A stretch of 64,000 nt of DNA from Candidatus Mcinerneyibacteriota bacterium. Lineage in GTDB: Bacteria > Macinerneyibacteriota > Macinerneyibacteria > Macinerneyibacteriales > DSCS01. Below, in pieces: positions 12,901 to 25,885 of the stretch. Within the stretch, counting starts at the first letter, position 1. The number at the start of each line of letters is the position of its first letter. The notes below the pieces were generated by a model that saw only the letters and a program-made list of their open reading frames with translations, was not told the origin of the DNA and ran no database searches. Both the position numbers and the translations under genes were made by a program. The stretch spans positions 18,821 to 82,820 of the forward strand of contig JAFGWL010000013.1 in NCBI GenBank assembly GCA_016937175.1, written 5' to 3'.

Positions 12901-13938
12901 TTCAGCCAGACGCGGGTATCCTGTTTCCAGGAGCTTATTGATATAATGTGTCAAAAAAAGAAGTGATTCGCGGGGCGAAAAGAGAGAGACGACTTTCTCG
13001 GCCAGAGGGAGGATCTCCTCTGGCTTGTCTGTCCGCTCCAGGTAATTGTTGTAATGGTAGACCGAAGAAAAACTGTAGGCAAGGTCTTCCCTGCTTTTAT
13101 AGGAGAGTTTCGGGCCCTTTGTAAAAAAAAGGGTATCACTTGAAAGCGTAAAACTATGAAGTCCTTCTGCTCCAAAGAGATAATGCTCTCTGCCCTCCTC
13201 CGATGAAGTGAGAAAGGCTGTCTGCAGATTCTCTTCCCTTCCGGGCACATCTTCTGCCAGTGGATAGGAGAGATAATAGAGTTTCCCTGTGACAGGATCA
13301 TAAAAAAGGTCTGATTTGGGCAAAGGAGAAGTCTTCAGAACCCGGATATTCCCGGTGGCGGTCTCCACGGACAGGATCTCTCTGTCTCTGAGAAGATAGA
13401 CCTCCCCTTCTCCAAAGGCAAGGTCTTCCGCGCCGGAGAACTCAGACCGATAGACCTCCTTCCCCTCACGGCTTAAGATGACAAGGTCTGTCTTTCCCTC
13501 TTCGCGCGACAGGGCTGCGATCAGGGAGCCGTCGGGAGAGAACCGGGGAGACATCTCCCGGACGAAAGGCCTGCCCAGATTTGTCATCTTTCCTCCCTGC
13601 AGAAGCAGGATGTCCCCCAGGACATCATACTGGTCCGAGGTGACAAGCAGGCTTCCCCTGCTGTCAGTATCTTCCAGGCTCTCTTCATAAGATGTTGAAA
13701 AAAGAGCCTCGCTCATTTGTGCGGTAAAATCATATTTGATGACTTGACGGTTGTTGTTGTCGATAACGGTATAGTAGAGACACCCTGTCTCCGGGCAGAA
13801 ACGCACAGATTCTATTCCCCCCAGCTGGACATCGATCTGCCCCTCAGGAGGCATCTCCTGCACGAGTCCGCTTTTGAGAGTACATCCTCCGGCTCCCAGA
13901 AGAATCAGGAGGAGAAACAGAAACGTTTTACGGTGCAC
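6991..13938 (-). CDS. giant (2315 aa) lipoprotein: TolB-like beta-propeller (PD40) N-terminus, very long TPR array, C-terminal CHAT (caspase-like) peptidase domain
   Basis: Signal peptide/lipobox MHRKTFLFLLLILLGAGGC; PD40-like RFSPDGSLIAALSREEGKTDLVIL; hundreds of residues of TPR-like repeats; C-terminal CHAT signature DYDIIHFACHGYF...RLAVLSACDSGVG...ISSLWRISD; GTG start at 13936-13938 with GGAAGGAGAAGA RBS, overlapping stop of upstream gene. Confidence 0.8.
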   Translation of the reverse strand: MHRKTFLFLLLILLGAGGCTLKSGLVQEMPPEGQIDVQLGGIESVRFCPETGCLYYTVIDNNNRQVIKYDFTAQMSEALFSTSYEESLEDTDSRGSLLVTSDQYDVLGDILLLQGGKMTNLGRPFVREMSPRFSPDGSLIAALSREEGKTDLVILSREGKEVYRSEFSGAEDLAFGEGEVYLLRDREILSVETATGNIRVLKTSPLPKSDLFYDPVTGKLYYLSYPLAEDVPGREENLQTAFLTSSEEGREHYLFGAEGLHSFTLSSDTLFFTKGPKLSYKSREDLAYSFSSVYHYNNYLERTDKPEEILPLAEKVVSLFSPRESLLFLTHYINKLLETGYPRLAEREADKFSYLAEGTLLKPLVTKEDIAGAPSLYEEGMSERLIFRLYEAGEHRAVLETFSTLENRIRSTGLKNKLSLLAARSALMTGRKTPALGLLEKIINNAFYRDRYVTEAVSLYLKVRAEYKAGSGYSLNILSRIRDENPPGSTLFYGATGALMDSLLVVGDYAGALQEWHKVKGREDENREMLYPILLEIYSRYETEEGITAFSNILTSGYNGVYYKDIVSFLRSRAVAVAEEYEKEEDLLKARKIILLLREALPGDLEINRAMIRLDYLLGNIMETAGRYKALYLDHPEDPLMQYLYGFALTYVGTSYEVRGRTDLTLAAYEEALDLVVSSVGRRPQEGIMHLTLGWLYEEMERLGQGQYLEMALGEYKTGLALADTDDRLLRGYFEKNMANIYFKLRIFDKALDYYTAMSGKIPPYQGRQEEKQYLLRLSTIHYNLNQYEETASFDRKLLTLYLEDQDIRGQDYILKHLGMVTSLSGKHLESVRYFERALSLGLSGEDPVRQVLYHRNIAYNALLGDDTDKALFHAKKGLDLLQGDQARKKEGGGLLDISIAMALSGAHETGAYRGFTPEMERNLLLSIMAAASMNKGEMSAAVDLFKEKLAVSDSPYADMVITNNFASLYYRIGNDQLLQEYLDRSLEISRENKFQKGLLINELSSLFLNMDSSPDPLGILEGMEERVKAIRDPDLQELHQWMMILAFMKTAPREESFSTLREAVDKQEKDFRRYEKIRSLLQRPGVSPAMKRLFYLFLHRFLGDDVLSSLMSLQGEDVFLDFLINIDAALLTRRSSPESCFEFLEKASDSINRADDKTAPRFAAFFRDKGYIPFQLLEDAVTEKTDFDRLVRLLSGFESFEERIRYLFYKPELFSQLDTVNLGNYFYYLGREDLAEASRYAEKLDQRARLISGIPFLKGESLRRMLSPDDIIAYRLEKKFLLLTRDRARIEQDIPPDATFIIDRKADSFRSSAYNAFSLSQLYLLYEGRHMPRPWSLSEGKPLIEESSGYFRLSGSLESDQVNPYASKAGDYTGLQFLKEGLTVDGLWVDEAEVTSPISMRLFTDILIYAGLNTIKIGEITFSYREMTEKQFASFLSEKTSEIDRRAYLYYKEGHYSRSFRELANLIPLLKARKDTATLTSRLYLMITIATDHLRDPELIRQELKEYISLKGLPESAYEKNLAILYERTGFYSRAIALYKEGRIPGDQTLQLASLYEKNGQYEEASELLNLVNTEESLIRRAVIHYKYFNENEKARALLEKVRSRDKQQTVELLKGSISLREGDYETAKALFRPLTESPERNIRINAAIGMANLLFKTNAYHECLDYIRRTLQSLPEKENQAERVILKNLLSLALLETGSEHLALSEIDGALETARRYNIVGETTALIINKSLILRETGRPEEALALLESELPEAQARNNSYLLKGLYRHLAITSYQIGSSGQALLYLGKMKDLGQLTPEESMYASYYTGLVTKDIPMLEKARQEALDIRDISTALEIANHLGLFSGRIDHFEMAVSLLEAMAEDMDSPGLQVKLLKKYQGIYRSLAEAYFDAGLFEKSFFTTEKVKRIAFLVNNPLGAGQSTLKPEEEEALDKLKKELYHLDLLMKNDASIVREYEARKEDLDRLKLEIAMNQKGSADIPGERDFAGTIPQGTLVLSFLVLENRTLLLSWLDGAISGYSIPAGKERLNEEVSRLRDLISETAGEEVIRGESSRLGDLLLPFDLPKSGHLVVSPSGVLNYLPFSLLVKKGEYLIDRFPVTYIPDLFMLRENSGAGPFRSILAVGNPDLDNPDLELYFAQKEAGEIRFIFGPITDILKGKAATEEAVREKMASKDYDIIHFACHGYFNRHYSLLSHLLFASGGHLDGRFDVEEIRNLTPQARLAVLSACDSGVGVLGEGDEVTALDRAFMKTEESAVISSLWRISDVATGMLFKHFYRELDKGTPAPLALWKAKKELRLFFPHPAYWSSMKYTGN

Positions 13939-14503
13939 TCTTCTCCTTCCAGCTGCCCGAGGCGTCCTGAATCAGCCAGCCTGGCCTGGCCTCGTCATGC
14001 ATTTTATGAGCAAAGATCTCTTCCACTTTTCCCAGGTCATTCTCGCTTAATCCCTGGGTGATGCTGATAATGCGGTTATAGATGATCCTCCGGTCACGGT
14101 TCTCTTCCTGCAAAAACCGGTCGACCAGACGGGCAAGCTCTTTGTCCTCATCCAGCCGTCGGGAATCCCTGATCTCCACATACCCGCTGTTGGACTCCCC
14201 TATGATCTTCATATCCATAAAACGCTGATAGTCGTCTTTATTGTAGAGTCTGTTCTGATAGGCTAAAAGAGATCTCCTTTTTTCATCGGAAATCTCGGCG
14301 ATATCATCGGGGAGAGCCCTGACAGAGACAAGCAGCATAGGATCAGCCCCGATAAAGGAGTAGTTGCCCAGAACCTGGTTTTCCAGAGAGGTCTTCTCTC
14401 CCACCAGAGTGATCTCGATCTTCGCCTTGGGGCTTAAGAGAGAACACCCCGCAATAGCCAGCCCCGCGGCGAGATATGAGATGAGAAGAACGGCTTTGTT
14501 CAT
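13928..14503 (-). CDS. YdbL (DUF1318)-like periplasmic lipoprotein, possibly a YnbE-YdbL fusion
   Basis: Lipobox LAIAGC; C-terminal RRIIYNRIISITQGLSENDLGKVEEIFAHKMHDEARPGWLIQDASGSWKEK matches DUF1318 (YdbL) pattern; located between the YdbH-like gene and the CHAT gene, as in the E. coli ydbH-ynbE-ydbL order. Confidence 0.55.
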   Translation of the reverse strand: MNKAVLLISYLAAGLAIAGCSLLSPKAKIEITLVGEKTSLENQVLGNYSFIGADPMLLVSVRALPDDIAEISDEKRRSLLAYQNRLYNKDDYQRFMDMKIIGESNSGYVEIRDSRRLDEDKELARLVDRFLQEENRDRRIIYNRIISITQGLSENDLGKVEEIFAHKMHDEARPGWLIQDASGSWKEKSAP

Positions 14504-14515
14504 GACACTCCTTTC

Positions 14516-17137
14516 TTAAAAGACAAGACCTGCTTCTTTGAGGATACTGTCCAGAGGAATACGCCTGATGGGTTCGACATCCAGCCCTCCTATAAGAAAA
14601 CCCAGGGCGAATGAGACTAAATTGGATCGGCGGAATCCGAAGGTGGGATGGATGTTGACAAACCCGTTGGATGTGGTGACCAGCACATTTTTGGGTACTA
14701 CCCCTACCATATTAAGCTTCTTGCGCATGCCTTGTATCTGGGGGTTTTTCTTGTCCGGGTCGAGAGAGAGGAGAGCTTTGTCCAGGACATCGCTGTCGAT
14801 CTTTGTAATATCCCAGAATCCTTCCACTTCCGTTCCTTTACCCTTAAAGCGGGAAACCATGGAGAGAAGAGAGGTTCCTCCTTTGCCTGTCCCTTTTCTG
14901 ATGTTCAGGTCGATGGCATTGAATTGAATATCGTAACTCAACACGTCCAGGTCGGCCGAAAGAGCCCCTCCGATCTGGCCATCCAGAAAACGGCCATAAA
15001 AAGTGTGGACAGAGGCTTTTTTATTGACAGCGCTCAGAGAAGCCGCGAAATCTCTGATGACGAAATGCTGAAAACCGCCCTTCTCCATCCTGAAATTGAT
15101 CTCTTCTCCCTGCCTCAACTCCCCGGGGGCGAATGGCCCGAAGTAGTAGGGAAGCGAAAGAGTCAGGCCCGTGACTGAGATATCCCTGTCGTATTGGAGA
15201 GATCCCATTGAACAGTCAAAGACAGCCTTCCATTTTTTCTGAGTTCCTTCAAACCAGAGCCTCCCGTCGATTTCCTCCAACCGGATCTTCTTTTCCGGAT
15301 AAGAGAGAGATACACCGTCCATGGTGTTGTCTGTCTTGATGAACGGGGCAGCGAGGGTCCCTGAGAGATCCAATGTGAAGTTGACAGTCCCCTTTGATTC
15401 GATTGCCGGCAGTCCCGGGGCGAAGGAGATGAGTTCAGGGATATCGATCTTGGAATGGGAGAGAGTCAGATTGATGTTTTCTTCCCCCCACTTTTCCAGG
15501 GAGCCGTTTACAAGGAAGCGGTTGTTCTTCCCCAGTTTCAAAAAAAAGTTATCGCAGTAAAGATACTTCTGCATAGGAGCGATGATGAGCCCTCCTCCCA
15601 TGCTGACTTTGGGGATCTTGACCGGCGAAAAATCAGTCCGGAAATCGATCTCCTGGGCTCCTGCCGAGATCAGCAGAGTCAACCCTTTGGAAATGGAACC
15701 GGTGACTTCTGCCAGGGCGTTCAGTTTTGCATAAAGAGGAATATCAAAATAGTTATAAAAGGTGAAATCACGCATCTGGAGGTTAAGCTGCAATGAATCC
15801 AGGTCCGGGGTATTACCCCGAAGTTTCAGCATTCCCCCGTAGAGGGAGAAGGAGAAATCTTCCAGGGTACATGCTCCTGTCATGCGCTGCGGATCCAGAT
15901 GGCCCTTCACGGCCAGATGGATATTCTTCAAAGGCTCTGTCATGCGGGAGACTAAAAGAGAAGCGATCTCGGCTTCGGCGCTGATCTCCAGGTTCTCAGG
16001 GGTCCCTCCCAATGACAGGGTCACCAGAGCGTCTTTTAAAGAGGCTTCGCTGGCTGATGCCGAAGGGATACGGAGGATCACCTTGCCTCTCATCGTCTCC
16101 TTCCGCGCTTCTCCCCGGGTCCGGATGTAACCTTCTACAGAGACCGGGGGAAAGCCGGGAATAGCCCGCCGGAGGATACTGGTGAGCCCGTCCAGGTCAA
16201 TGTCCGAAAAAAGACGGCTGAAGGAGAGGGACTCAAACTTCATCGCATCATCAAAGAGGATTTTTCCCCGTATTTCGGCCAATGTCAACTGGTTCACAGC
16301 CACAGTAAAGTCTCCTGCTGTCAGGCTCTTCCTGGTTGTGCTGAGAAGATAGGATCCTTTCTGTGTCAGGGTCACCTCTCTTTCGGGTTCTCTGGCAGAG
16401 ACAGCCTCCTTCAAAGCCAGAGAGCCGTCTGAGACAGCCGCCTGTAAGGATACTCCGTAGGGGAGAAAAAGCCTGTCCGGTCCGTTACCCAGCGTGACAT
16501 TGTTATCATTAGTGCGGAGTCTGAAATAGCCTGTAAGTCCCTGAAATGTCCCGTCAGGAGCTTCAACAGCGCCCTCAAGGGAAAACGAGCCGGAATGAGA
16601 GACTCCCTTCCCCTGATAAAGAAGGCGAAGATTCCTGACATCAAGAGACCTGACCCGGAAACGGGGTATCTTTTCGGGGATCAGAGGCTTTTTCTCAAGA
16701 GGTGTCTCTTCCTCTTTCCCTCCAGGGACACTTTCCTTTATTCGCCCATCTGAAAAAGAGGCCTCCTTCATGGAAAAGGTGACATCTTCCAGTGATATCG
16801 ACTCGATTTCAACAAGCCCCCGAAAGAAAGCGAAGGGAGAAATCCGGATATGAATACGGCCTGCCGAAAGGTCTCCCCGGGGAAGAGAAAGGGTGAGGTC
16901 TTTTAACGTCAGGGAAAAAGGCAGTCGGGAAACGGACGATCCTGCAGAAAGGGGTAAAAAACGGGAGACAAGTGAGCTGTTCAGGACTCCTGGTGAAAGA
17001 AGGCTGTTGAGAAGAGAGAAGAAGAAAGCCATATGGACCAGAAAAGAAACAACGACTCCGCCTGCAGCAAGAAGAAGAGCTTCCCCCTTCCGGCCTTCCC
17101 TCTGATCTTGCTTTTTATCGTGTTTCAGACGACTCAT
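14516..17137 (-). CDS. AsmA-like family protein, YdbH-like (intermembrane lipid-transport family)
   Basis: 873 aa (E. coli YdbH is 879 aa); single N-terminal TM anchor then long beta-rich periplasmic region; followed by YdbL-like gene. Confidence 0.55.
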   Translation of the reverse strand: MSRLKHDKKQDQREGRKGEALLLAAGGVVVSFLVHMAFFFSLLNSLLSPGVLNSSLVSRFLPLSAGSSVSRLPFSLTLKDLTLSLPRGDLSAGRIHIRISPFAFFRGLVEIESISLEDVTFSMKEASFSDGRIKESVPGGKEEETPLEKKPLIPEKIPRFRVRSLDVRNLRLLYQGKGVSHSGSFSLEGAVEAPDGTFQGLTGYFRLRTNDNNVTLGNGPDRLFLPYGVSLQAAVSDGSLALKEAVSAREPEREVTLTQKGSYLLSTTRKSLTAGDFTVAVNQLTLAEIRGKILFDDAMKFESLSFSRLFSDIDLDGLTSILRRAIPGFPPVSVEGYIRTRGEARKETMRGKVILRIPSASASEASLKDALVTLSLGGTPENLEISAEAEIASLLVSRMTEPLKNIHLAVKGHLDPQRMTGACTLEDFSFSLYGGMLKLRGNTPDLDSLQLNLQMRDFTFYNYFDIPLYAKLNALAEVTGSISKGLTLLISAGAQEIDFRTDFSPVKIPKVSMGGGLIIAPMQKYLYCDNFFLKLGKNNRFLVNGSLEKWGEENINLTLSHSKIDIPELISFAPGLPAIESKGTVNFTLDLSGTLAAPFIKTDNTMDGVSLSYPEKKIRLEEIDGRLWFEGTQKKWKAVFDCSMGSLQYDRDISVTGLTLSLPYYFGPFAPGELRQGEEINFRMEKGGFQHFVIRDFAASLSAVNKKASVHTFYGRFLDGQIGGALSADLDVLSYDIQFNAIDLNIRKGTGKGGTSLLSMVSRFKGKGTEVEGFWDITKIDSDVLDKALLSLDPDKKNPQIQGMRKKLNMVGVVPKNVLVTTSNGFVNIHPTFGFRRSNLVSFALGFLIGGLDVEPIRRIPLDSILKEAGLVF

Positions 17138-17204: not shown

Positions 17205-17242
17205 GAATTAATGAAAAAATAAAGGGGAGCTTAACGCTCCCC
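17205..17242 (-). terminator. rho-independent terminator of valS
   Basis: GGGGAGC-ttaac-GCTCCCC hairpin (stop codon TAA of valS in the loop) followed on the minus strand by UUUAUUUUUUCAUU. Confidence 0.6.
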
Positions 17243-19666
17243 CCATTTGATGGCCATGAGAAGGTCTCCCTCGCCGCACCTGGCGTCCGGCTCTTTAACC
17301 GGCGCCCGCTTTTCAACCTTCAGAAGAGAATCTATCTGACGGAGGACCCCCTCTTCGAACTCCTTTTTGGCATATCCCTCATCGTCCAGTAATGCGATGG
17401 GATGAGCCAGAGAAAGTTTATGTTCTGATTTAGCTTTTCTTATAAATTCCACATATCTGAGGACTTTCTCTCCCTCTTCAGCTGCTCCGTCGAAAGCCTG
17501 ATAGTTTTCAGGCAGAGGCCAGGGGGCCAGATGAATGGACTTTTCGGGTAAAAAGTCAGTGAAATAGAGTTGATAGATCTCTTCTGTGATATGAGGCAAG
17601 AAGGGAGCGAAGAGGCGCAGAACCCCGTAAAGGACTGTAAAAAGAGCCCACTGACTCCCCTTTTTCTCCTCTCGGGTCCCTTCCTTGATCTTGCCTTTCA
17701 CCAGTTCGATATAATTATCGCAGAGGTCTTTCCAGAAAAAAGTCTCGATGGACTGAAGTGCAAGGCCGTATTCATAGCGCTCGAGATATTCGGTGGCCGT
17801 TCCTGCCGTGGACCGGAAAGATTCCAGGATCCAGCGGTCCACACTGTTAAGGCTCCCCCCTTTTTCGCCTGAATAACCTTCCAGGTTCATGATGGCGAAT
17901 TTTGAGGCGTTCCAGAGTTTTGTGACGAGTTTACGCCCGTCTTTAAGGACATCTTCTGAAAAAAAAGTGTCCATCCCCAACCGCGACCCTGCCGTCCAGT
18001 ACCTGACCGGATCGGCTGAATGCTGAGCTACCAGAGCCTGGGGAGTCTGTCCTGCATTTCCTTTGGATTTGGATATCTTTTTGCGCTGAGGGTCCAGGCT
18101 GTGCCCGGATATCATGATGTTCTTCCAGGGTGGCACTCCATGATGGTAATAGGACTTGACGATGGTATAGAAAGCCCATGTGCGGATGATGTCATGTGCC
18201 TGGGGGCGCAGGTCCATGGGGAAGATCTCCTTCATCCGGTCGTCTTTTTCGCCCCATTTCCCGTTTATCTGAGGCGTCACCGACGAGGTGGCCCAGGTGT
18301 CCAGGACATCTCTCTCGGGGACAAAAGAGGTCCCTCCACAGGACGGACAGGGCTTTCCCGGGCCATCTTTCAGGGGGTTGACCGGAAGGGAGCTTTTATC
18401 GGCCACAACAGGCTCCCCGCAATCGTCGCAGTACCAGAGGGGGAACGGTACTCCAAAATAACGTTGTCTGGAGATCCCCCAGTCCCATTTGAGATTGGAA
18501 ACCCAATGTATATAACGCTCTTTCATGAATTCAGGGTACCATTTAATGGAATCAGCCAAGCGGATAAGCTCTTCTTTATGCTCGAGGATCTTGATAAACC
18601 ACTGTTTTTTAACGATAAACTCCATCTCCCGCCCGCAACGGTCATGAGTGTTTACAGGATGGGTGACATGGCGTTTCCCGCGTACGAAACCGCCCTCTTC
18701 CAGGTCGTTTATGATGGCTTTTCGCGCCTCTTTGATCTTCATCCCCTCGTAGGGACCCGCCAGGGTATTCATGCGGCCGTTTTCGTCTATGGCCTGGCGC
18801 AGCTCCAGGTTGTGGGTATGATACCATTCCACATCGGTGGAATCGCCGAAGGTACAGCACATGACCGCCCCGGAGCCCTTCTCCGGATCGACTTTGTCAT
18901 CGGGACGGATAGTCACATCGATATCAAAAAGCGGTGGGCGGACAGTCATCCCGTGGGCCTTTTTATACCTGGGGTCTTCCGGATGGACGAAGACAGCGGT
19001 CAGCGCCGGAAGGAGTTCAGGGCGCGTGGTGGAGATGATCAGTTCCTCTCCGTTTTCCAGCGTAAAGGCGATATCCACGAATTCCGAATCGAACTCTTTG
19101 TCTTCTGTCTCAGCCTGGGCCACAGTAGTCCGACAATGGGGACAATAGAGCGCCGGGGTAGCCTTATGGACCACATAGCCCTTTTCAAAGAGATCGATAA
19201 ACGAACGCTGGGAGATCCGGCGTGAACGCTCATCGATGGTGGAATAGAGCTGATTCCAGTCAGCCGAGAAACCCAGGCTTTGCCAGAGAGCCTTGAATTC
19301 CGCTTCTACTTCAGCAGAGACCTCAAGACAATGAGAGATGAACTCCTCCCTGTCCATGGAGGAGGCGTTTTTTTTCAGCTTTTTCTCCACAAGGCGCTCG
19401 GTAGGAAGCCCGTTATCATCAAACCCGAAGGGATAGAAGACATTGTAACCCCGCATGCGTTTGTATCGCGTCATGATCTCAGCCTGGGTATAGGAAAAGA
19501 CATGGCCGATATGCAGCTGTCCCGAGACCGTGGGGGGAGGAGTGTCTACTGAATAGACGGGCTTATCCCCTTTCCCTTCGTATGAAAAGATATTCTCCTC
19601 TTCCCAGAAACGTTGCCATTTTTTCTCTGAATCCAATCCGCCGTAATATTTTGGCAGCTCTTTCAT
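17231..19666 (-). CDS. valS: valine--tRNA ligase (short form lacking C-terminal coiled-coil)
   Basis: Class I aaRS: PPPTVSGQLHIGH (HIGH), KISKSKGN (KMSKS); editing-domain region TTRPELLPALTAVFVHPEDPRY resembles ValRS TRPETMxGDTAVAVHPEDERY; 811 aa. Confidence 0.65.
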   Translation of the reverse strand: MKELPKYYGGLDSEKKWQRFWEEENIFSYEGKGDKPVYSVDTPPPTVSGQLHIGHVFSYTQAEIMTRYKRMRGYNVFYPFGFDDNGLPTERLVEKKLKKNASSMDREEFISHCLEVSAEVEAEFKALWQSLGFSADWNQLYSTIDERSRRISQRSFIDLFEKGYVVHKATPALYCPHCRTTVAQAETEDKEFDSEFVDIAFTLENGEELIISTTRPELLPALTAVFVHPEDPRYKKAHGMTVRPPLFDIDVTIRPDDKVDPEKGSGAVMCCTFGDSTDVEWYHTHNLELRQAIDENGRMNTLAGPYEGMKIKEARKAIINDLEEGGFVRGKRHVTHPVNTHDRCGREMEFIVKKQWFIKILEHKEELIRLADSIKWYPEFMKERYIHWVSNLKWDWGISRQRYFGVPFPLWYCDDCGEPVVADKSSLPVNPLKDGPGKPCPSCGGTSFVPERDVLDTWATSSVTPQINGKWGEKDDRMKEIFPMDLRPQAHDIIRTWAFYTIVKSYYHHGVPPWKNIMISGHSLDPQRKKISKSKGNAGQTPQALVAQHSADPVRYWTAGSRLGMDTFFSEDVLKDGRKLVTKLWNASKFAIMNLEGYSGEKGGSLNSVDRWILESFRSTAGTATEYLERYEYGLALQSIETFFWKDLCDNYIELVKGKIKEGTREEKKGSQWALFTVLYGVLRLFAPFLPHITEEIYQLYFTDFLPEKSIHLAPWPLPENYQAFDGAAEEGEKVLRYVEFIRKAKSEHKLSLAHPIALLDDEGYAKKEFEEGVLRQIDSLLKVEKRAPVKEPDARCGEGDLLMAIKWGER

Positions 19667-19687: not shown

Positions 19688-20194
19688 TCAGGGTATAAAA
19701 GGGTCCCAGTCATGGGCCTTCATAATAAGATCGGTGATTTCACGGGCCGCTCCCCGTCCTCCGGGAAGGCTTGTCACATAATCGGCTTCCTGCAGCATGA
19801 GTTCGTGGGCATCGGACACGGTAAAAGCGATACCTGCACGCTTGAAGACCTCCAACTCGGGGATATCGTCTCCCACACAAGCTGTCTCTTCATCCTGAAG
19901 ATGATATTTGGCTTTCAACTCTTCATAGACAGAGAGTTTGTCTTTGATCCCCTGATAGACCTCTGTGATTCCCAGGTCCCGGGCCCTCTTTTCTACAAGG
20001 CGGGATTTTCGTCCTGTCACGATAGCAAGGACGATCCCCCGCGAGAGAAGCATTTTCATCCCCAGCCCGTCGCGGGAGTGGAACGCCTTATATTCTCTTC
20101 CTTCGTCATCCATATAGAGAGAGCCGTCGGTAAGGACGCCGTCCACATCGAAGATGATAAGCCTGATCTTTCTGAGCTGGTCTTCAAATGTCAT
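19688..20194 (-). CDS. kdsC: 3-deoxy-D-manno-octulosonate 8-phosphate phosphatase (HAD family)
   Basis: 168 aa; IIFDVDGVLTDG, GDDIPE motifs; in kdsA-kdsD-kdsC order. Confidence 0.85.
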   Translation of the reverse strand: MTFEDQLRKIRLIIFDVDGVLTDGSLYMDDEGREYKAFHSRDGLGMKMLLSRGIVLAIVTGRKSRLVEKRARDLGITEVYQGIKDKLSVYEELKAKYHLQDEETACVGDDIPELEVFKRAGIAFTVSDAHELMLQEADYVTSLPGGRGAAREITDLIMKAHDWDPFIP

Positions 20195-21147
20195 AAGATC
20201 CCCGCTTTGAGAATGTCATGAATATGGATAACGCCTTCGATATGCTCGGAATCGTCCACCACCACAAGAGAGGTGATATTGTAGTCTTCCATGTTTTTGA
20301 GGGCAAAAGCAGCTAACTTATCCTCAGTGATGGTCTTGGGGTGGCGGATCATGATATCTTTCATAAGGATTTGATTGAGAGAGTCATGGGTCTGCAGAAA
20401 ACGTTTGAAATCTCCGTCGGTGAAGATGCCCAAAAGATGTCCTGAATCATCTGCAACGGTGGTCATCCCCTTTCCCTTGGAGGAGATCTCATAGATGGCC
20501 TCTTTCAGCGGCGTCTCCGGCGAGACCCTCGGGATGGCTTCTCCTGTGACCATGAGATCGGCCACGGTAAGCAAAAGTTTTTTCCCTAAAGCTCCTCCTG
20601 GATGGTAGAGGGCGAAATCTTCAGCTTTAAACCCCTTCTCTTCAAGAAGGGTGATAGCCAACATGTCTCCGAGGACGAGAGTGACCGTCGTGGAAGCTGT
20701 AGGGGCCAGGTTCAGGGGGCAGGCCTCCTTCTCCACAGAGATATCAAGGACTTCGTCGCTGTATCGGGCCAGGGTAGACTCCTTTTTCCCGGTAATAGCT
20801 ATGAGAGGGACGCCCATGCGTTTCAGAGTCGGCAGTATCTTGATGAGTTCTTCTGTCTCCCCGCTGTTGGAGATGGCGATGACCAAGTCTTCCCGGCGGA
20901 TCATACCCAAGTCGCCATGAGAAGCTTCCGCCGGATGAAGAAAAAATGATGGAGTCCCGGTACTGGCCAGGGTTGCCGAGATCTTTCGGCCCACGAGCCC
21001 CGATTTGCCCATCCCGGTGATGACGACGCTTCCCTTGACCGAGGCCAGCAGAGTCACTGCATGAAAAAAGCGATTGTCGATCCTGTCGTAGAGTCTCTTC
21101 AAAGCCTCCAGTTCCACATCCAGAACGCGCCGGGCCGCCTCTTTCAC
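20191..21147 (-). CDS. kdsD: arabinose-5-phosphate isomerase (SIS + tandem CBS)
   Basis: 318 aa; SIS motif [11 protein letters not shown]-terminal CBS pair; overlaps kdsC and kdsA by 4 nt. Confidence 0.85.
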
Positions 21148-21968
21148 AGGCTCTCCTCCTTGACAAGGGTATCGAGTTTTTTGAAAAAATCCAGCATAGC
21201 GGGAAGGTCTCTCAGAGAGACCATATTGGGCCCGTCGGAGAGTCCTTTGTCCGGGTCGGGATGTACTTCCATAAAGAGTCCTGCGATACCGGCGGTAAGA
21301 GCGGCTTTAGCCAGGGGAAATACATACTCACGGTTTCCCCCGCTTCGCCCTCCCAGCCCGCCAGGCTGCTGGACACTGTGGGTGGCGTCGAAAACAACCG
21401 GATATCCCATCTGACGCAACACGACCAGAGAGCGGATATCTGTGATCAGGTTATTGTAACCGAAACTTGCTCCTCTTTCGGTGAGAAGGATCTTTTCATT
21501 TCCCGTAGAGGCCACTTTTGCAGCGGCATGGGTCATGTCCCAGGGAGCTAAAAACTGTCCTTTTTTGATATTGACGGGGATCCCGGTCTTTCCCGCTTCC
21601 AGGAGAAGGTCAGTCTGACGGCAGAGAAATGCGGGAATCTGTATCATGTCGACCACTTGTGCAGCAGCCTTGGCCTGTTCCTCTGTATGGATATCCGTGA
21701 CCACCGGGAGTCCAAGCTCATCCTTGACCTTTTGCAGGATGCGGAGGCCCTCTTCCAGGCCGGGCCCGCGGTAGCTTTCTATTGATGACCTGTTGGCTTT
21801 ATCGAAAGAGGCTTTGAAGATAAAAAATATGCCTCTGTCCCTGCAGATCTTCTGAAGATCCTCGGCAATATCGAGCACCATTTTCTCCCCTTCGATGACA
21901 CATGGGCCGGCGATGAGAAAAAACGGTGAATCGTTGGAAAGTGTATGGTTTTGGATTGAAACAGCCAT
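21144..21968 (-). CDS. kdsA: 2-dehydro-3-deoxyphosphooctonate aldolase (KDO8P synthase)
   Basis: MAVSIQ...[11 protein letters not shown]...[11 protein letters not shown]...[17 protein letters not shown] signature; ORF-track N-terminal extension (MTFPTACDM...) is probably not translated. Confidence 0.9.
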
Positions 21969-22056
21969 GAGCCCTCCCTCGTTTAAATAACGGCGGGGCC
22001 CTTCTGACCCCACCGAAATCATATCACAGGCCGTTGGAAAAGTCAACGAAGGATGG

Positions 22057-25000
22057 TCAGCTGTTGATAAGGAGGAAAGGCCGGATTACCCCGGCTCTGA
22101 TCTGTGTCCGCCCGCTGATGCTGCCTACCTCTCCTGAATACTTCTCAAGGAAAGCGCGTGTCTCTTTGTTGAATGAACCCTGTCCGAATCCCCTGGTAAG
22201 GAGAAGGGTGAACCCGAGCCCCTCATCCCCGGTGATGGCGCTTCCCAGCTCTTCCCCCATGAAAGTGCGCCAGTCAGAGAGGACCATGGAAGGAGCGACA
22301 AGCCCTCTTACGCTTTTTTCCCGGCAGGCCTTAAGATGGTCCAGCGTTACTTCTCCGTTCAAAAAGAGGATCTTCCCCTCTTTTTCGCTTACTTCCCAGG
22401 GTACGACTTCTCCCCAATGCTCATGCCCGAACCCTATGCGCCCCGTCAGACGGTGTCCTTTTGCCTCTATAATGACTTCATAGCCCGGAAGGATCTCTTT
22501 GACACGCCCCCGGACAAAGGCATAGGTGATGAGAGGTTTGAAATCATACTGTATCGTCACACTTCCCTCTTCATGGTCTATTTTTTTCACGATTCCTGTA
22601 ACCGGGGCTTTCAGGCCGGGAGATTCCCGCATATAAAGAGTCTCTGAAGACAGTTTAACAAGGTGCATTCCCTTTTCGATGAAATCACCCTCTTTTACAC
22701 TAAGATATCCCTTCATATGCCGCGGCCTGATATTGAGAAGAGAAGCCAGGGGGATTTTCACAGGTTTTGTGGAGTAGTCCTGGATCTCCTCAAGGACAAT
22801 GATCCCGTTCTCCTCTACAGCCAGGACACGTCCGCGGACAGGAGTCTTCAAAACATGATGTTTTTTCCCGATCTTTCCGTCAAAAACTGTCTGGTTGGTG
22901 GAGACGATGTCGTTTTCCCGAACCGTGACACCTGCCAGAAGCTCCTCTTTTTCAGCCTTGATGTCATATCCCAGAAGCCTTCTGAGGTCTACCATGAAGA
23001 TCCGCGGAGGAGTCATATTGTTTTCTCCCACGGGGGTCTCAGGGCGGACTTCGTCTCCTGCTTTTACCAGGACCTCCCCTTTGTAGGGCATCCTGCGGGG
23101 GACATCAGCCTTGATATCTTGCTCCAAAGAGACATGTTCGAGAGGAGCCTCCTCGCCGGGTTCTGCCTCCCCCTGATAAAGAGTGACATAGGAAGTGAAT
23201 GGTTTCCCGTTGAAGAAGCGCCCCCGCCCCCGGCAGTCTATGACCACGGGAAGAGCGGAATCGATAGTGACTTCGTTACCGTTTTTGTCCAGAGAGACGT
23301 TTTTGGCCGGGATAACTCTGGCTTTGAGCCCCTGGGGATAAAAGAGCAGAGAACCCCATGCGACTTCCGTAGAGACAGCCCCCTCTTCCCGGATGAGAGT
23401 CAGGGCGCTCTTTTTTTCATCGTAGACCTTCCCGGTGGGAGCCAAAACATAAGCTATCTCCCTGAGGCTCGACTCGACAAAGGCATCCAGGGCTTCGGTG
23501 GGTGTGAGCGTACTTAGGATACCGAAATGGGGGCTGCGGAAGCCCTTGTCTATTGCCAGAGTCGTGATCCCTTCAGGGAGGAATCCGTCCAGAAGCATAT
23601 GAACAGCTTCAGCATCTTGGCGGGTATGGGAAAGGACGCCTCCGGATCCGATAAACAGGTCGATATCGGCAAACTGAAAGGATTTCGGTGTATCTCTTAT
23701 TGAAAGGATCTCAGAGAAGGGATCGAAATTCTCGTCCCGTCTCCTCCGGTCAAGAAACCCTACACGCAGAATCCGGAAATTAGTCTTCTGATGCTGCTCC
23801 CAGGCAAGACGCAGGCCCAGAACAGCTAAGTGCTGTTCCACTTCGATCTCCCACTCTTCTTGAGGAAGGCGGGTGGGATAGAGCATCTTGTTTCCGCAGT
23901 ACCTGCGTGCCGCCTCAGCGCTTAGCGGTGCTTCCAGGCGACCCGCCACCGCCTCTTCCCCGGCCTCTTTGAAGATCTGGCCTATTGAATAACTCATCCC
24001 GATATTGGCTGCTACGGTCCGGTTATATTCTCCGATGATATTGGAGAACAGGTCGGTGGTGGCTCCTCCCATATCGGCCATGACTACGTTTTTGCGTTTC
24101 ATCTCACCATAGAGAGAGAGGATCTTCTCTACACCTACAGGAGTCGGCAGGATATGGTCTCCGGCCCATTTTTTCAGCTTGGGGTATCCCGGAGCCTTTT
24201 CCATGACATGGTTGAGGAAGAGATGATGAATAGAGGCCTGGGCGGGAAAGATATTGGTCTTTTCAAGCGAAGGGCGGAGGTTCTCTGTCACATGGCAATT
24301 AAATCCCTGCAGAGTCTTCAGAACCAGTCCACGGGCATTGGTATTTCCCGCATAGACAACAGGAGGCCTTTCCTGACGGGAATATTTCATAGTAGGCTCC
24401 GAAAGAGCCAGTATCTCGGCCAGACGCACAACTCCGGCGATATTCCCCCCGTCGATCCCCCCAGCCATAAGGATCATGTCGGGATGGATGTCGTAGAGAA
24501 AACGCATGCGCTCTATCACAGGAAGCTCGTCATCGATGGTGAAACGCCTGAGGATGACTCCTCCCGCTCCATTAGCCGCCTGAGACGCCACTTCTCCGGT
24601 GTCGGTGGAAGAGACGCCGAAGACAGCTATCTGAAGTCCCCCGCCGGCTGAACTGGTGGCCAGCATCGGGATTTGCGGCTTTCCGGCTGATGTGACGATC
24701 TTCTTCCCCTTGTACCGGGAATCGATCTCCCTTAGTGCCGCAGTTACCCCTATGGTGACATCATTATCCGGGTCTTCCACTGTGGTTTTTACATAGGAAT
24801 CGGCTGCCACCACCCATCTATTGCCCTCTTTAGTCAAAAGGACAGCTTTTGTGGCTGTACTGCCTATATCGACAACGGCAAAGGCCTCCTCCTTCTCCAG
24901 AGGGTCTCGCCCCCCGGATCCGAAAAGGTCATCCAGAGAGCGGCCGAAGATCTGGGCCATCTTCAGGCAGATCTTCAAAGAAGGGTTGTACCTTCCTCCT

Positions 25001-25104
25001 TCGATAAGGGCTACAGTCTGACGGCTGATGCCCAGTTCCGCTGCCAGGTTTTCCTGGGTATATCCCGCCGCTTCACGATATTTCCTGATCCGCTCACCGT
25101 CCAT
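22057..25104 (-). CDS. 1015-aa fusion: XRE-family HTH, ASKHA (actin-like) ATPase domain of GlmL/MutL family, C-terminal ~440-aa extension with barrel-sandwich-like repeats
   Basis: N-terminal [41 protein letters not shown]; phosphate-1 [20 protein letters not shown], phosphate-2 [15 protein letters not shown]; C-terminal repeats like [20 protein letters not shown] at 25102-25104 with GGAGG RBS. Confidence 0.7.
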
Positions 25105-25118
25105 AAAGCCTCCTTTGT

Positions 25119-25168
25119 AACATATATTATATATTGTATAGTATAATATACATTTCTTTCATTGTCAA
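25119..25168 (-). promoter_or_regulatory. sigma70-like promoter (TTGACA-17-TATACT) plus AT-rich quasi-palindrome (candidate operator) for HTH-ATPase gene
   Basis: Minus strand TTGACA (25163-25168), TATACT (25140-25145); between -10 and RBS lies ACATATATTATATATTGTATAGTATAATATA (imperfect inverted repeat). Confidence 0.4.
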
Positions 25169-25204
25169 GGTTGCATCCCTCGTTTCTTCGTGTATATTAT
25201 CTTT

Positions 25205-25885
25205 ATGAAAGAACTTCTTTTGTTTGATATCGATGGTACATTGATCAAAGTAAATCATGCCGGCCGTGAGGCCTTTTGCGAGGCTCTCTTCTCACTTTTT
25301 CCCGATCTGATGAGGGGAGAGTTCTGTTTTTCCCTGCGTGGCGCCACAGATCTGGGTGTCTTCAAAGCCTTCTGCCGACAATCCGGAATTACTTTTTCTC
25401 AAGATCTCTGGGAAAAGTTCACATTCCTCTTCACAGAAGCCCTGAAAATGACATCTGAAAACTATCAATGGGAGGTTATTCCCGGTGCGCGCAAAATGTT
25501 AAACCATTGCTTGAATATCGGCCTCTCTCTGGGATTAGCTACAGGGAATACAAGGGCGGGATCTATGCTTAAACTCTCCTCGGCCCTTTTTTCTTTGAAA
25601 GATCCCGTCGGTGGTTTCGGCGATGATTGCCTGACAAAAATCGAAGCCGTCCGTAAGGCCCTTCTCGCCTTTTCTTCTGTAACACCGGACCACATCCTCT
25701 TTTTCGGAGATACACATAGCGATTACCAGGCGGCCTGTGAATGCGGGATCTCATTCACAGGGATCGCGGGACTCGATTTTCAATTGAAAAAGCGTAAATA
25801 CCCTTTTCCTGTGATCAAAGATTACCTTTCAATTCTTGACTCCCCCGGCTCACCCCTTTACAGGGAAATCTTCGGGGAATCCTGA
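25205..25885 (+). CDS. HAD-superfamily hydrolase (phosphoglycolate phosphatase-like)
   Basis: MKELLLFDIDGTLI (motif I), GDTHSDYQAA (motif IV-like); start probably ATG 25205; -10-like TGTATATT ends 6 nt upstream and there is no SD, so it may be leaderless. Confidence 0.7.
   Translation: MKELLLFDIDGTLIKVNHAGREAFCEALFSLFPDLMRGEFCFSLRGATDLGVFKAFCRQSGITFSQDLWEKFTFLFTEALKMTSENYQWEVIPGARKMLNHCLNIGLSLGLATGNTRAGSMLKLSSALFSLKDPVGGFGDDCLTKIEAVRKALLAFSSVTPDHILFFGDTHSDYQAACECGISFTGIAGLDFQLKKRKYPFPVIKDYLSILDSPGSPLYREIFGES

Follow-up and report, generated by a model that had tools for sequence, protein, structure and literature searches.

A gene of a Candidatus Mcinerneyibacteriota bacterium encodes a 1015-residue protein in which an HTH is joined to an actin-fold ATPase, and it precedes, on the same strand, a kdsA-kdsD-kdsC-valS string. 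Does this protein control the KDO genes next to it, does it control its own gene, or is it a chaperone of glutamate mutase with additional domains? We addressed this question in a window of 64,000 nt (assembly GCA_016937175.1, contig JAFGWL010000013.1, positions 18,821-82,820, forward strand), to which all coordinates below refer. The coding sequence and the domains that it encodes are as follows:

22057..25104 (including the stop codon), minus strand: coding sequence of the HTH-ASKHA-barrel-sandwich fusion protein, 1015 aa, from the ORF list and its translation
24919..25104, minus strand: Xre/Cro-C1-type HTH, aa 1-62, five helices, from Pfam HTH_3
23479..24876, minus strand: ASKHA (actin-fold) ATPase domain, Pfam MutL/PF13941, aa 77-542, from profile and Foldseek matches
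22060..23472, minus strand: C-terminal module, aa 545-1015 (~470 aa, beta-rich), from the model (pLDDT 84) and Foldseek

The start codon is an ATG with an AAGGAGG Shine-Dalgarno sequence, full-length homologues span 92-100% of the protein (query coverage, >100 proteins), and the AF2 model is confident (pLDDT 89.1, pTM 0.84). At the N-terminus, HTH_3 matches residues 6-60 (E 6.6e-15, 55.3 bits against a Pfam cut-off of 23), the five helices of the model cover residues 3-12, 17-24, 28-35, 43-53 and 57-61, and the best PDB sequence matches are repressors, namely those of the PbsX family, CylR2 and SinR. PDB sequence and profile searches with the fusion protein returned these HTH matches and weak lipoyl/NqrA matches only. 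An anti-phage defence reading was dropped because PADLOC gave HTH matches only, confined to aa 2-117. The next domain matches PF13941 over profile positions 3-446 of 450 (E 1.5e-85, 288 bits against a gathering score of 27) and displays the hallmarks of the ASKHA superfamily, i.e. an RNase-H-like fold in duplicate and the motifs phosphate-1 (DxGxT), phosphate-2 and adenosine (DxGG), which read D79-I-G-S-T, G215-G-I-D-G-G and D344-M-G-G-A-T-T-D in this protein. The nucleotide-binding motifs (D79-G-S-T-x-T-K86, G215-G-x-D-G-G220 and D344-x-G-G-A-T-T-D351), DMGGATTD and the others quoted in an earlier, sequence-only reading of this DNA among them, are invariant in 115 family sequences. Foldseek matched the domain to acetophenone/acetone carboxylase, FtsA, PilM and DnaK (probability ~1.0 for these), as well as to a hydantoinase-family NMHase and glycerol dehydratase reactivase.

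The C-terminal module comprises, in order, a small beta domain (residues 547-625), a linker modelled with low confidence (~626-658), repeats of the barrel-sandwich-hybrid domain and, at the end, an alpha/beta domain, which bears the family-invariant motifs IGFG, APS, TGxE and TxGFG and for which neither Foldseek nor profile searches found a relative. Foldseek matched the module to RNAP beta' Si3/SBHM arrays, to the adaptors MexA, ZneB and BesA and to NusG domain II, and the C-terminal half gave weak, sub-threshold matches to the Biotin_lipoyl, RnfC_N and NQRA_N profiles. Sandwich-barrel-hybrid-motif arrays (those compared were RNA polymerase beta' Si3, the Thermus beta' insert, lipoyl/biotinyl domains, MexA-type adaptors and the NqrA/RnfC N-terminal domain) are the best fold matches for residues 545-1015; the TM-scores are low, however, and the family alignment has no invariant lysine to which lipoyl or biotin could be attached. 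Altogether, profiles and model bear out the architecture that the sequence-only reading had proposed: a Cro/C1-type HTH on the first ~60 residues, fused to a GlmL/MutL-family (GlmL-like) ASKHA domain and followed by barrel-sandwich repeats.

Upstream of the coding sequence, on its 5' side, a promoter and two inverted repeats occupy a 100-bp control region that is shared with a divergent gene:

25140..25168, minus strand: own promoter P1, TTGACA-17-TATACT, 11/12 consensus positions
25135..25152, minus strand: predicted operator site 1, TGTATATTATACTATACA, of the form TGTATA-N6-TATACA, both 6-bp inverted arms perfect; the -10 hexamer lies inside it
25116..25133, minus strand: predicted operator site 2, degenerate, TATATAATATATGTTACA, 9/12; begins at the predicted transcription start and stops just short of the Shine-Dalgarno sequence
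25205..25885, plus strand: divergent HAD-family hydrolase gene, from the ORF and from Pfam HAD on the orthologue in loci L002, L003 and L009

P1 was found as first read from the sequence. The AT-rich repeat placed behind it as an operator turned out to be two 18-bp dyads, one over the -10 and one over the start of the leader; its palindromic nature and its location at the gene's own promoter are backed by phylogenetic footprinting, but it does not simply lie downstream of the promoter. Both P1 hexamers are kept in the related loci L001, L010 and L003, and the -35 of L009 is TTTACA. Site 1 scores 12/12 in the window and in the same three loci, at a constant distance (-48) from the ATG, its position and full match being constant in relatives at 86% and 68% protein identity; in L001, it lies inside a perfect 20-bp palindrome. 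The position equivalent to site 2 scores 12/12 in L003 and 11/12 in L009, and both dyads are kept in relatives down to 68% identity. Over the segment between -35 and RBS, both included, L001, L010 and L003 show 78-88% identity, compared to 49-65% in the remaining spacer. The dyad pattern occurs once in the 64-kb window (0.01 expected) and, among the 91 loci fetched, was found at the fusion-gene promoter only. Three Mcinerneyibacterium loci have a related 18-mer, 13/18 identical (manual count on the alignment), that overlaps their -35; a search in front of the HTH-bearing genes of the distant loci L005, L090 and L091 gave no convincing matching dyad. These conserved and unique dyads at P1 point to autorepression. 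Synteny of the HAD gene is kept down to 42% fusion-protein identity. The Rfam scan found no RNA family within the window, so neither spacer appears to hold a riboswitch or a known leader. Promoter function by itself accounts for some of the conservation of AT-rich promoter DNA. Part of the conservation of site 1 is not operator-specific, because this site contains the -10.

On balance, we consider it rather probable that the fusion protein is a bifunctional ASKHA-family protein with a gained HTH, which represses its own promoter via the two dyads and does not target the KDO genes. We infer binding to DNA, repression and, if there is any, a gating role of ATP or a ligand, along the following lines: an N-terminal Xre-type HTH would have been gained in Candidatus Mcinerneyibacteriota and a few other lineages; the protein, which is cytoplasmic, would dimerise and bind the two TGTATA-N6-TATACA dyads; it would thereby repress its own gene and perhaps the divergent HAD gene as well; the ATP-dependent job of the family would be kept alongside DNA binding; and the strength of DNA binding may vary with the nucleotide, ligand or partner that the protein has bound. 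Because all family-invariant ATP-binding and C-terminal residues are kept, and on this ground of residue conservation solely, the protein is most likely bifunctional and trigger-enzyme-like. In the trigger enzymes BirA, PutA and NadR, an added DNA-binding domain represses the enzyme's own gene or operon according to catalytic or ligand state; the likeness proposed here lies in a DNA-binding domain appended to an enzyme or to a protein that uses ATP, whereas there is no relationship between the catalytic domains. That an actin-fold domain can gate a repressor has a precedent in the ROK family (NagC, Mlc, XylR), where a DNA-binding HTH is N-terminal to a small-molecule-sensing ASKHA-fold domain. 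ROK proteins differ by their winged HTH, their sugar-kinase-type ASKHA domain (~300 aa) and the usual loss of catalysis in ROK repressors, whereas the fusion protein keeps all family-invariant residues and has no match to ROK (PF00480) at E <= 1 in the Pfam scan. Finally, the five-helix HTH_3 and the palindromic, here predicted, operators over the promoter recall Xre/Cro-C1 repressors such as SinR, CylR2, PbsX and 434 Cro; these are proteins of 65-110 aa or have simple oligomerisation domains, while the HTH makes up 6% of the 1015-aa fusion protein.

The other candidate target lies on the 3' side of the gene, where kdsA, kdsD, kdsC and valS, each above its NCBIfam cut-off, are the genes that had been named there:

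21144-21968, minus strand: kdsA, NCBIfam KdsA 421 bits (cut-off 242)
20191-21147, minus strand: kdsD/kpsF-type isomerase gene, NCBIfam KpsF/GutQ 350 bits (cut-off 204)
19688-20194, minus strand: kdsC, NCBIfam KdsC/YrbI 181 bits (cut-off 107)
17231-19666, minus strand: valS, NCBIfam ValS 1038 bits (cut-off 738)
22018..22046, minus strand: candidate independent promoter of kdsA-kdsD-kdsC-valS, TTGACT-17-TATGAT with an upstream TG (extended -10; TTGACT-17-TG-n-TATGAT), 10/12 plus TG
21991..22015, minus strand: hairpin of 10 bp (8 G-C) followed by TTATTT, from the terminator-like scan

The gap between the fusion gene and kdsA had been given as 11 nt, a figure that uses a TTG at 22046. The start of kdsA is the ATG at 21968: the Shine-Dalgarno sequence GAGGGAGG lies upstream of it, the alignment to the KdsA profile begins at residue 3 of the resulting protein and gene callers give KdsA lengths of 272-274 aa in relatives. 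With this start, the gap is 88 nt. It folds at -34.2 kcal/mol (z -2.4) and contains the promoter listed above, whose hexamers and TG are kept in 5/5 syntenic loci, even in L009, where protein identity is 42%, as well as the hairpin, whose stem is kept in L001, L010 and L003 and which could act as a weak terminator of the fusion gene or, alternatively, form a 5' stem-loop on the kdsA mRNA. The claim that the fusion gene heads a KDO operon is thus contradicted by a conserved candidate promoter and a hairpin in the spacer, a finding named beforehand as speaking against it.

In its full form, that claim holds that an ATP- or metabolite-gated transcription factor heads and controls one fusion-kdsA-kdsD-kdsC-valS operon, coupling LPS-core (KDO) synthesis to a metabolic signal by direct control or by repression of P1 cutting read-through; we think it unlikely. 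The five genes are tightly packed on one strand, in an order kept in relatives at 86%, 68% and 42% identity, yet their 88-nt gap harbors a near-consensus extended -10 promoter, and no second copy of the operator was found near kdsA or elsewhere in the window. Because the T-tract of the hairpin is weak, substantial read-through into kdsA is possible; folding of such a transcript, however, predicts base pairing between the kdsA Shine-Dalgarno sequence and the 12 nt that follow the fusion-gene stop. Comparison of gene neighborhoods also cuts both ways: two other deep lineages (L024/L027 and L028/L046) have kdsD or kdsA-kdsD next to a family member devoid of the HTH, whereas the HTH-bearing orthologues of Mcinerneyibacterium, Zixibacteria and the P0011 lineage do not adjoin kdsA and have no kds neighbors (the P0012 contig stops at the fusion-gene orthologue, and its downstream side is outside the comparison). 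Moreover, the cluster is not a dedicated KDO unit, because valS lies in the same string. The link between regulator and KDO genes suggested by the sequence-only reading therefore keeps the recurrent adjacency in its favor and has the kdsA promoter, the missing operator and the location of the HTH-bearing orthologues against it: a functional tie is possible, because gene order is kept to 42% identity and kdsD adjacency recurs in two other lineages, but kdsA, kdsD, kdsC and valS are most likely neighbors of the regulator rather than its target, with most of their transcription coming from the conserved promoter in front of kdsA. Annotation of this cluster as the regulon of the fusion protein is not warranted.

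Judged by its sequence, the fusion protein belongs to a large, uncharacterised family of long MutL-like ASKHA ATPases with a barrel-sandwich C-terminal module, since its ASKHA domain and C-terminal module are colinear with those of the family and bear the motifs PYxG, EIQDY, IGFG, APS, TGxE and TxGFG. Relatives devoid of the HTH are colinear over residues ~70-1015 at 36-46% identity and have all invariant residues in common with it; they number hundreds across candidate phyla, are either fused (~950 aa) or split (~600 + ~375 aa) and stay far under the GlmL cut-offs of NCBIfam. Hosts of the family include Fermentibacteria, Zixibacteria, WOR-3, Aegiribacteria, Edwardsbacteria and Delongbacteria, among others, and databases automatically name its members 'glutamate mutase L' or 'TIGR01319 family'. 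The homology search gave >6000 word-sharing matches, the best 120 being full-length proteins of ~940-1040 aa. An HTH is present in 16 of these 120, all of which keep the invariant ASKHA and C-terminal residues. After clustering at 50%, there were 267 representatives at E <= 1e-30, and the alignment reached residue 1 in two of the best 150; family members were found at no fewer than 596 metagenome loci. A search with the N-terminal 200 residues for further HTH fusions returned one fragment. On these alignments, rarity is limited to the HTH fusion: the first 62 residues are unusual and the body is common, so that the 'unusual architecture' noted earlier holds for the fusion and not for the rest. 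Similarly, the remark that GlmL-like proteins are normally standalone and ~460 aa long does not fit the nearest relatives, which form a ~950-aa family with the same C-terminal module and no HTH. In the NJ tree, the HTH-bearing sequences fall into three or four basal groups, which neither favors nor refutes a single HTH gain. In other members, GntR and Zn-ribbon domains are joined to the same ASKHA family.

In the split form, the part from residue ~660 onwards is a separate gene product of ~375 aa (C1; 33 loci), and stand-alone C1 proteins align to residues ~660-1013 of the fusion protein. For many split-form members, the gene belongs to a conserved cluster that also encodes DUF6754 and four further small/membrane proteins; no homologues of the partner genes C2-C6 were found within the 64-kb window, and the fusion protein thus departs from its family both by its HTH, which most members lack, and by the absence of the DUF6754 cluster from its surroundings. 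Genes of the split-form group also adjoin cdsA, a lipid kinase gene and rlpA. A search in a full-text library of PMC and bioRxiv papers found none for PF13941, TIGR01319, DUF6754 or PF20539, and the literature matches for Mcinerneyibacteri* merely mention the phylum. It is conceivable, if distinctly unlikely, that the whole family is the cytoplasmic ATPase of a membrane-associated machine for envelope or lipid/LPS biogenesis, with DUF6754 and the four other proteins as partners; DNA-binding-type domains (Xre, GntR, Zn ribbon) would have been captured independently, the state of the machine would feed back on transcription, and the KDO genes might be reached by read-through in Mcinerneyibacteriota. 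The context cited for such a machine is the kdsA/kdsD adjacency in three deep lineages, together with cdsA, the lipid kinase and rlpA in the split-form group.

The HTH could also be a protein-protein interaction module rather than a DNA-binding domain, the dyads being ordinary promoter sequence: the Xre-type HTH of RodZ reportedly binds the actin-fold protein MreB (van den Ent et al. 2010), an HTH is likewise joined to an actin-fold domain here and chance dyads are frequent in AT-rich promoters. We hold this to be improbable. The RodZ-type HTH_25 model does match the fusion protein (E 0.0019), but with 18 bits, under its Pfam cut-off, versus 55 bits for HTH_3, and the nearest solved sequences are the DNA-binding repressors cited above. 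Likewise, the dyad has arms that are perfect over 6 bp, is unique in the window and the 91 loci and is kept in position in relatives, and a DNA-binding domain, GntR, is joined to the same family elsewhere.

Last, that the protein is a true GlmL/MutL chaperone reactivating a B12-dependent glutamate mutase (the role described for GlmL; PMC4682846) or ornithine aminomutase, with regulatory or accessory domains added, is highly improbable: the ASKHA ATPase domains are homologous, with the same phosphate-1, phosphate-2 and adenosine motifs, a PF13941 match, best NCBIfam matches to GlmL and to a GlmL-related ornithine-degradation protein and the database name 'glutamate mutase L', but scores are far under the curated cut-offs (179 versus 475 bits for the GlmL equivalog NF040745, 129 versus 204 for subfamily TIGR01319 and 150 versus 600 for a further model), no B12-dependent mutase gene, glmS and glmE included, was found among ~10 flanking genes or in the neighborhoods of about a dozen relatives, the conserved split-form partners are membrane proteins including DUF6754, and GlmL stands alone, with a length of ~460 aa and its gene between glmS and glmE, whereas here the ASKHA domain takes up only residues 77-542 of 1015 and is accompanied by an HTH and by a ~470-aa barrel-sandwich module that GlmL does not have.

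For annotation, the consequence is modest, in that the fusion gene should not bear the name glutamate mutase L. More broadly, a widespread family, with hundreds of 50%-identity clusters over many candidate phyla, is labelled 'glutamate mutase L' and yet fails the criteria for GlmL. Autorepression by the fusion protein should be easy to test because the predicted operator is well defined. If true, it would provide a clean natural example of a large ATPase made its own repressor by the addition of a 62-residue HTH, and the HTH-bearing members would offer a handle on the ligand or function of the whole family, because whatever relieves autorepression would point to it.

The fusion gene is a genuine 1015-aa minus-strand ORF (22057..25104), as claimed from the sequence alone; its start codon is an ATG, and AAGGAGG stands ahead of it. 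Pfam matches HTH_3 to residues 6–60 (E 6.6e-15) and MutL/PF13941 to residues 77–542 (E 1.5e-85); in the C-terminal half, the Biotin_lipoyl, RnfC_N and NQRA_N matches are all sub-threshold. All the motifs quoted earlier, including the V-x-V-K-x-G-D-like strands, are found in the protein. An AlphaFold2 model computed from 115 homologues is confident (pLDDT 89.1, pTM 0.84) and displays the following parts:

aa 1–62: five-helix HTH
between the HTH and the ASKHA domain: short linker, lower confidence
aa 74–545: ASKHA domain
aa 547–625: small beta domain
aa ~626–658: second lower-confidence linker
beyond the second linker: beta-rich region with a small alpha/beta domain at its end

By Foldseek comparison with the PDB, the middle domain belongs to the ASKHA superfamily: subunits of acetophenone/acetone carboxylase and of hydantoinase type are closest, and FtsA, PilM, DnaK and glycerol dehydratase reactivase come next. 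Residues 545–1015, modeled separately (pLDDT 84), resemble arrays of sandwich-barrel-hybrid domains, albeit with low TM-scores (RNA polymerase beta' Si3/Thermus insert, MexA/ZneB/BesA adaptors, NusG domain II). The Pfam, AlphaFold2 and Foldseek results thus bear out the parsing into HTH, GlmL-like ASKHA and barrel-sandwich parts proposed by the sequence-only reading.

The promoter proposed for the fusion gene, TTGACA-17-TATACT, lies at 25168..25140 (11/12 matches). The AT-rich quasi-palindrome is indeed an inverted repeat but consists of two 18-bp dyads, the first of which contains the −10 hexamer:

25135–25152: site 1, TGTATATTATACTATACA, perfect 6-bp arms, −10 hexamer inside
25116–25133: site 2, 9/12, reaching from the predicted start site and ending just short of the Shine-Dalgarno sequence

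TGTATA-N6-TATACA occurs once in the 64-kb window (0.01 expected) and, across all 91 fetched loci, at this promoter only. Site 1 is 12/12, at an unchanged distance from the ATG, in the relatives at 86% and 68% protein identity, and in the relative L001 it lies within a perfect 20-bp palindrome; site 2 is 12/12 in L003, another relative, and 11/12 in the syntenic locus L009, whose fusion protein is 42% identical. Between the −35 and the RBS, identity reaches 78–88% in the 86% and 68% relatives, as against 49–65% in the remaining spacer. This uniqueness, kept position and raised local identity argue that the dyads are more than chance. Three Ca. Mcinerneyibacterium loci carry a related 18-mer, TGTAA[TG][AG]TATACTTGACA, which is 13/18 identical to site 1 by our own count and, unlike site 1, overlaps the −35; the Zixibacteria locus and two other loci yielded no clear dyad. 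Most simply, the dyads point to negative autoregulation: as a dimeric repressor of Xre type, the fusion protein would repress its own promoter via sites 1 and 2.

On the plus strand, TGTATATTAT (25191–25200), just before the ATG of the divergent HAD gene (25205), repeats operator arm 25143–25152 perfectly in inverted orientation; in relatives, a TATA[AT]T-like element is kept some 6 nt ahead of the HAD start codon. This sequence is a candidate −10 of a divergent, leaderless HAD mRNA and could also act as a putative third repressor half-site. The HAD gene (+) and the thiamine diphosphokinase gene (−; TIGR01378, 102 bits) converge, their 3' ends overlapping by about 36 nt (25850–25885), as in L002/L003 and L009.

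Downstream, the genes named as those for KdsA, a KpsF/KdsD-type isomerase, KdsC and ValS are confirmed. The 11-nt gap to kdsA, in contrast, had been measured from TTG 22046, and the true gap is 88 nt from ATG 21968: the match to the KdsA profile begins at residue 3 of the protein encoded from this ATG, gene callers give 272–274 aa for KdsA in relatives, and GAGGGAGG stands before the ATG. The gap contains a predicted promoter (TTGACT-17-TATGAT, TG upstream, 22046..22018, 10/12), both hexamers of which are kept in 5/5 syntenic loci, even the one whose protein is only 42% identical. Three nucleotides downstream lies a 10-bp hairpin with 8 GC pairs, followed by TTATTT; a transcript from this promoter would start within the 5' arm, and only read-through RNA is predicted to form the full hairpin. 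In such RNA, folding predicts pairing of the 12 nt after the fusion stop (CCAUCCUUCGUU, 22045–22056) with the Shine-Dalgarno region of kdsA (AACGAGGGAGGG), the spacer (21969–22056, minus strand) having an MFE of −34.2 kcal/mol (z −2.4). As a transcript from the kdsA promoter would lack this anti-Shine-Dalgarno segment, kdsA may be translated poorly from read-through RNA. No operator copy was found near kdsA, and separate promotion of the kdsA cluster is the best-supported explanation.

Down to 42% identity, relatives preserve the gene order thiamine diphosphokinase / HAD (divergent) / fusion / kdsA-kdsD-kdsC-valS / TamB-like. After valS come genes for an 873-aa TamB-like protein and a 191-aa lipoprotein (13928–17137, minus strand; DUF1318 in the L002/L003 orthologue), which probably serve outer-membrane biogenesis and continue the same-strand gene string. 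In two other deep lineages, kdsD or kdsA-kdsD adjoin HTH-less family members 30–39% identical to the window protein, so that KDO-gene adjacency recurs in independent lineages:

L024, 2922–3848: KDO gene, kdsD directly upstream of a fused form
L027, 487–1431: KDO gene, kdsD directly upstream of a fused form
L028, 2–1764: KDO genes, kdsA and kdsD just upstream of a split form
L046, 3–1171: KDO genes, kdsA and kdsD just upstream of a split form

The orthologues with an HTH from Ca. Mcinerneyibacterium (three loci), Zixibacteria and the lineage of homologue P0011 have unrelated neighboring genes and no kds neighbors; the P0012 contig stops at the gene, which makes this locus uninformative on the downstream side. 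These orthologues speak against the proposal that the fusion gene heads a KDO operon, and so does the conserved kdsA promoter, an independent promoter being among the results that the sequence-only reading had itself listed as refuting. A regulator of this single KDO operon is unlikely; the conserved order and the kdsD/kdsA adjacency favor a looser KDO connection.

An N-terminal HTH is rare in the family: it occurs in 16 of the 120 best 90%-clusters, and only 2 of the 150 best 50%-representatives align from residue 1. Members with the HTH were found in Candidatus Mcinerneyibacteriota, Zixibacteria and other MAGs and form three or four basal groups in an NJ tree. They keep every family-wide invariant residue, which speaks for a retained family function and against decay into sensors alone. 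The N-terminus of this ASKHA family has also gained a GntR winged HTH (homologue P0188), a Zn-ribbon (Zn_ribbon_2; P0120, P0145) and a peptidase M1 region (P0174). That DNA-binding-type domains were captured repeatedly lends indirect support to a regulatory use. We regard a RodZ-like HTH that does not bind DNA as quite improbable.

The protein body does not qualify as an odd GlmL: the NCBIfam GlmL models match far under their curated cut-offs (179 vs 475, 150 vs 600 and 129 vs 204 bits). A genuine B12-mutase reactivase is the least credible of the alternatives. The closest relatives form a large family of ~940–1040-aa proteins, colinear with residues ~70–1015 at 36–46% identity and found in Fermentibacteria, Zixibacteria, WOR-3, Aegiribacteria, Edwardsbacteria, Eisenbacteria, Delongbacteria and others. 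HMMER, run exhaustively over 1.84 billion representatives, returned 267 clusters at E <= 1e-30, and a metagenome scan at least 596 loci. Invariant residues are numerous over the whole length; they include the ATP-binding motifs and, C-terminally, PYxG, EIQDY, IGFG, APS, TGxE, TxGFG and one further motif. Lipoyl or biotin attachment is unlikely because no lysine of the barrel-sandwich region is invariant across the family. Automatic names are 'glutamate mutase L' or 'TIGR01319 family', the former also borne by a 98%-identical protein (MBN2726110.1) that assigns the window's organism to Mcinerneyibacteriota, and a full-text literature search found no paper on PF13941, TIGR01319 or DUF6754. The architecture is already in public databases under a misleading name and, as far as the searchable literature shows, undescribed.

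ORF clustering of 89 loci revealed a split form of the family as well (33 loci), in which an ASKHA protein of ~600 aa (cluster C0) is followed by a ~375-aa barrel-sandwich protein (C1), the split point corresponding to the low-confidence linker of the fusion protein. A frequent conserved order is C2-C0-C1-C3-C6-C5-C4 (L028, L035, L040, L053, L058, L065, L079, L087). Among the partners, only C3 has a Pfam match (DUF6754, E 4.5e-105); the C2, C4, C5 and C6 exemplars have none and are apparently small or membrane proteins. This cluster, none of whose C2–C6 partners lies within the window, looks like an undescribed membrane-associated system. The split form frequently has cdsA, a lipid-kinase gene of YegS type and an RlpA-like gene upstream: cdsA (CTP_transf_1) directly precedes the ASKHA gene in L032, L035, L061, L069, L076, L079 and L087, and ahead of cdsA there are often genes for a lipid kinase of the YegS/DAG-kinase type and an RlpA-like DPBB lipoprotein as well as a DHODH-like gene. 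In L051, L052, L057, L063, L070, L074 and L083, glycine-cleavage genes (gcvPA, gcvPB, gcvH) lie immediately upstream, gcvH being present in four of the seven. The cdsA, lipid-kinase and RlpA-like neighbors hint at an envelope connection for the family as a whole, if too faintly for a claim.

On balance, we consider it more likely than not that the fusion protein is an autorepressed, probably bifunctional member of an uncharacterized ASKHA/barrel-sandwich ATPase family, akin in logic to trigger enzymes such as BirA, PutA and NadR and in domain principle to the ROK repressors, which combine an HTH with an ASKHA domain.
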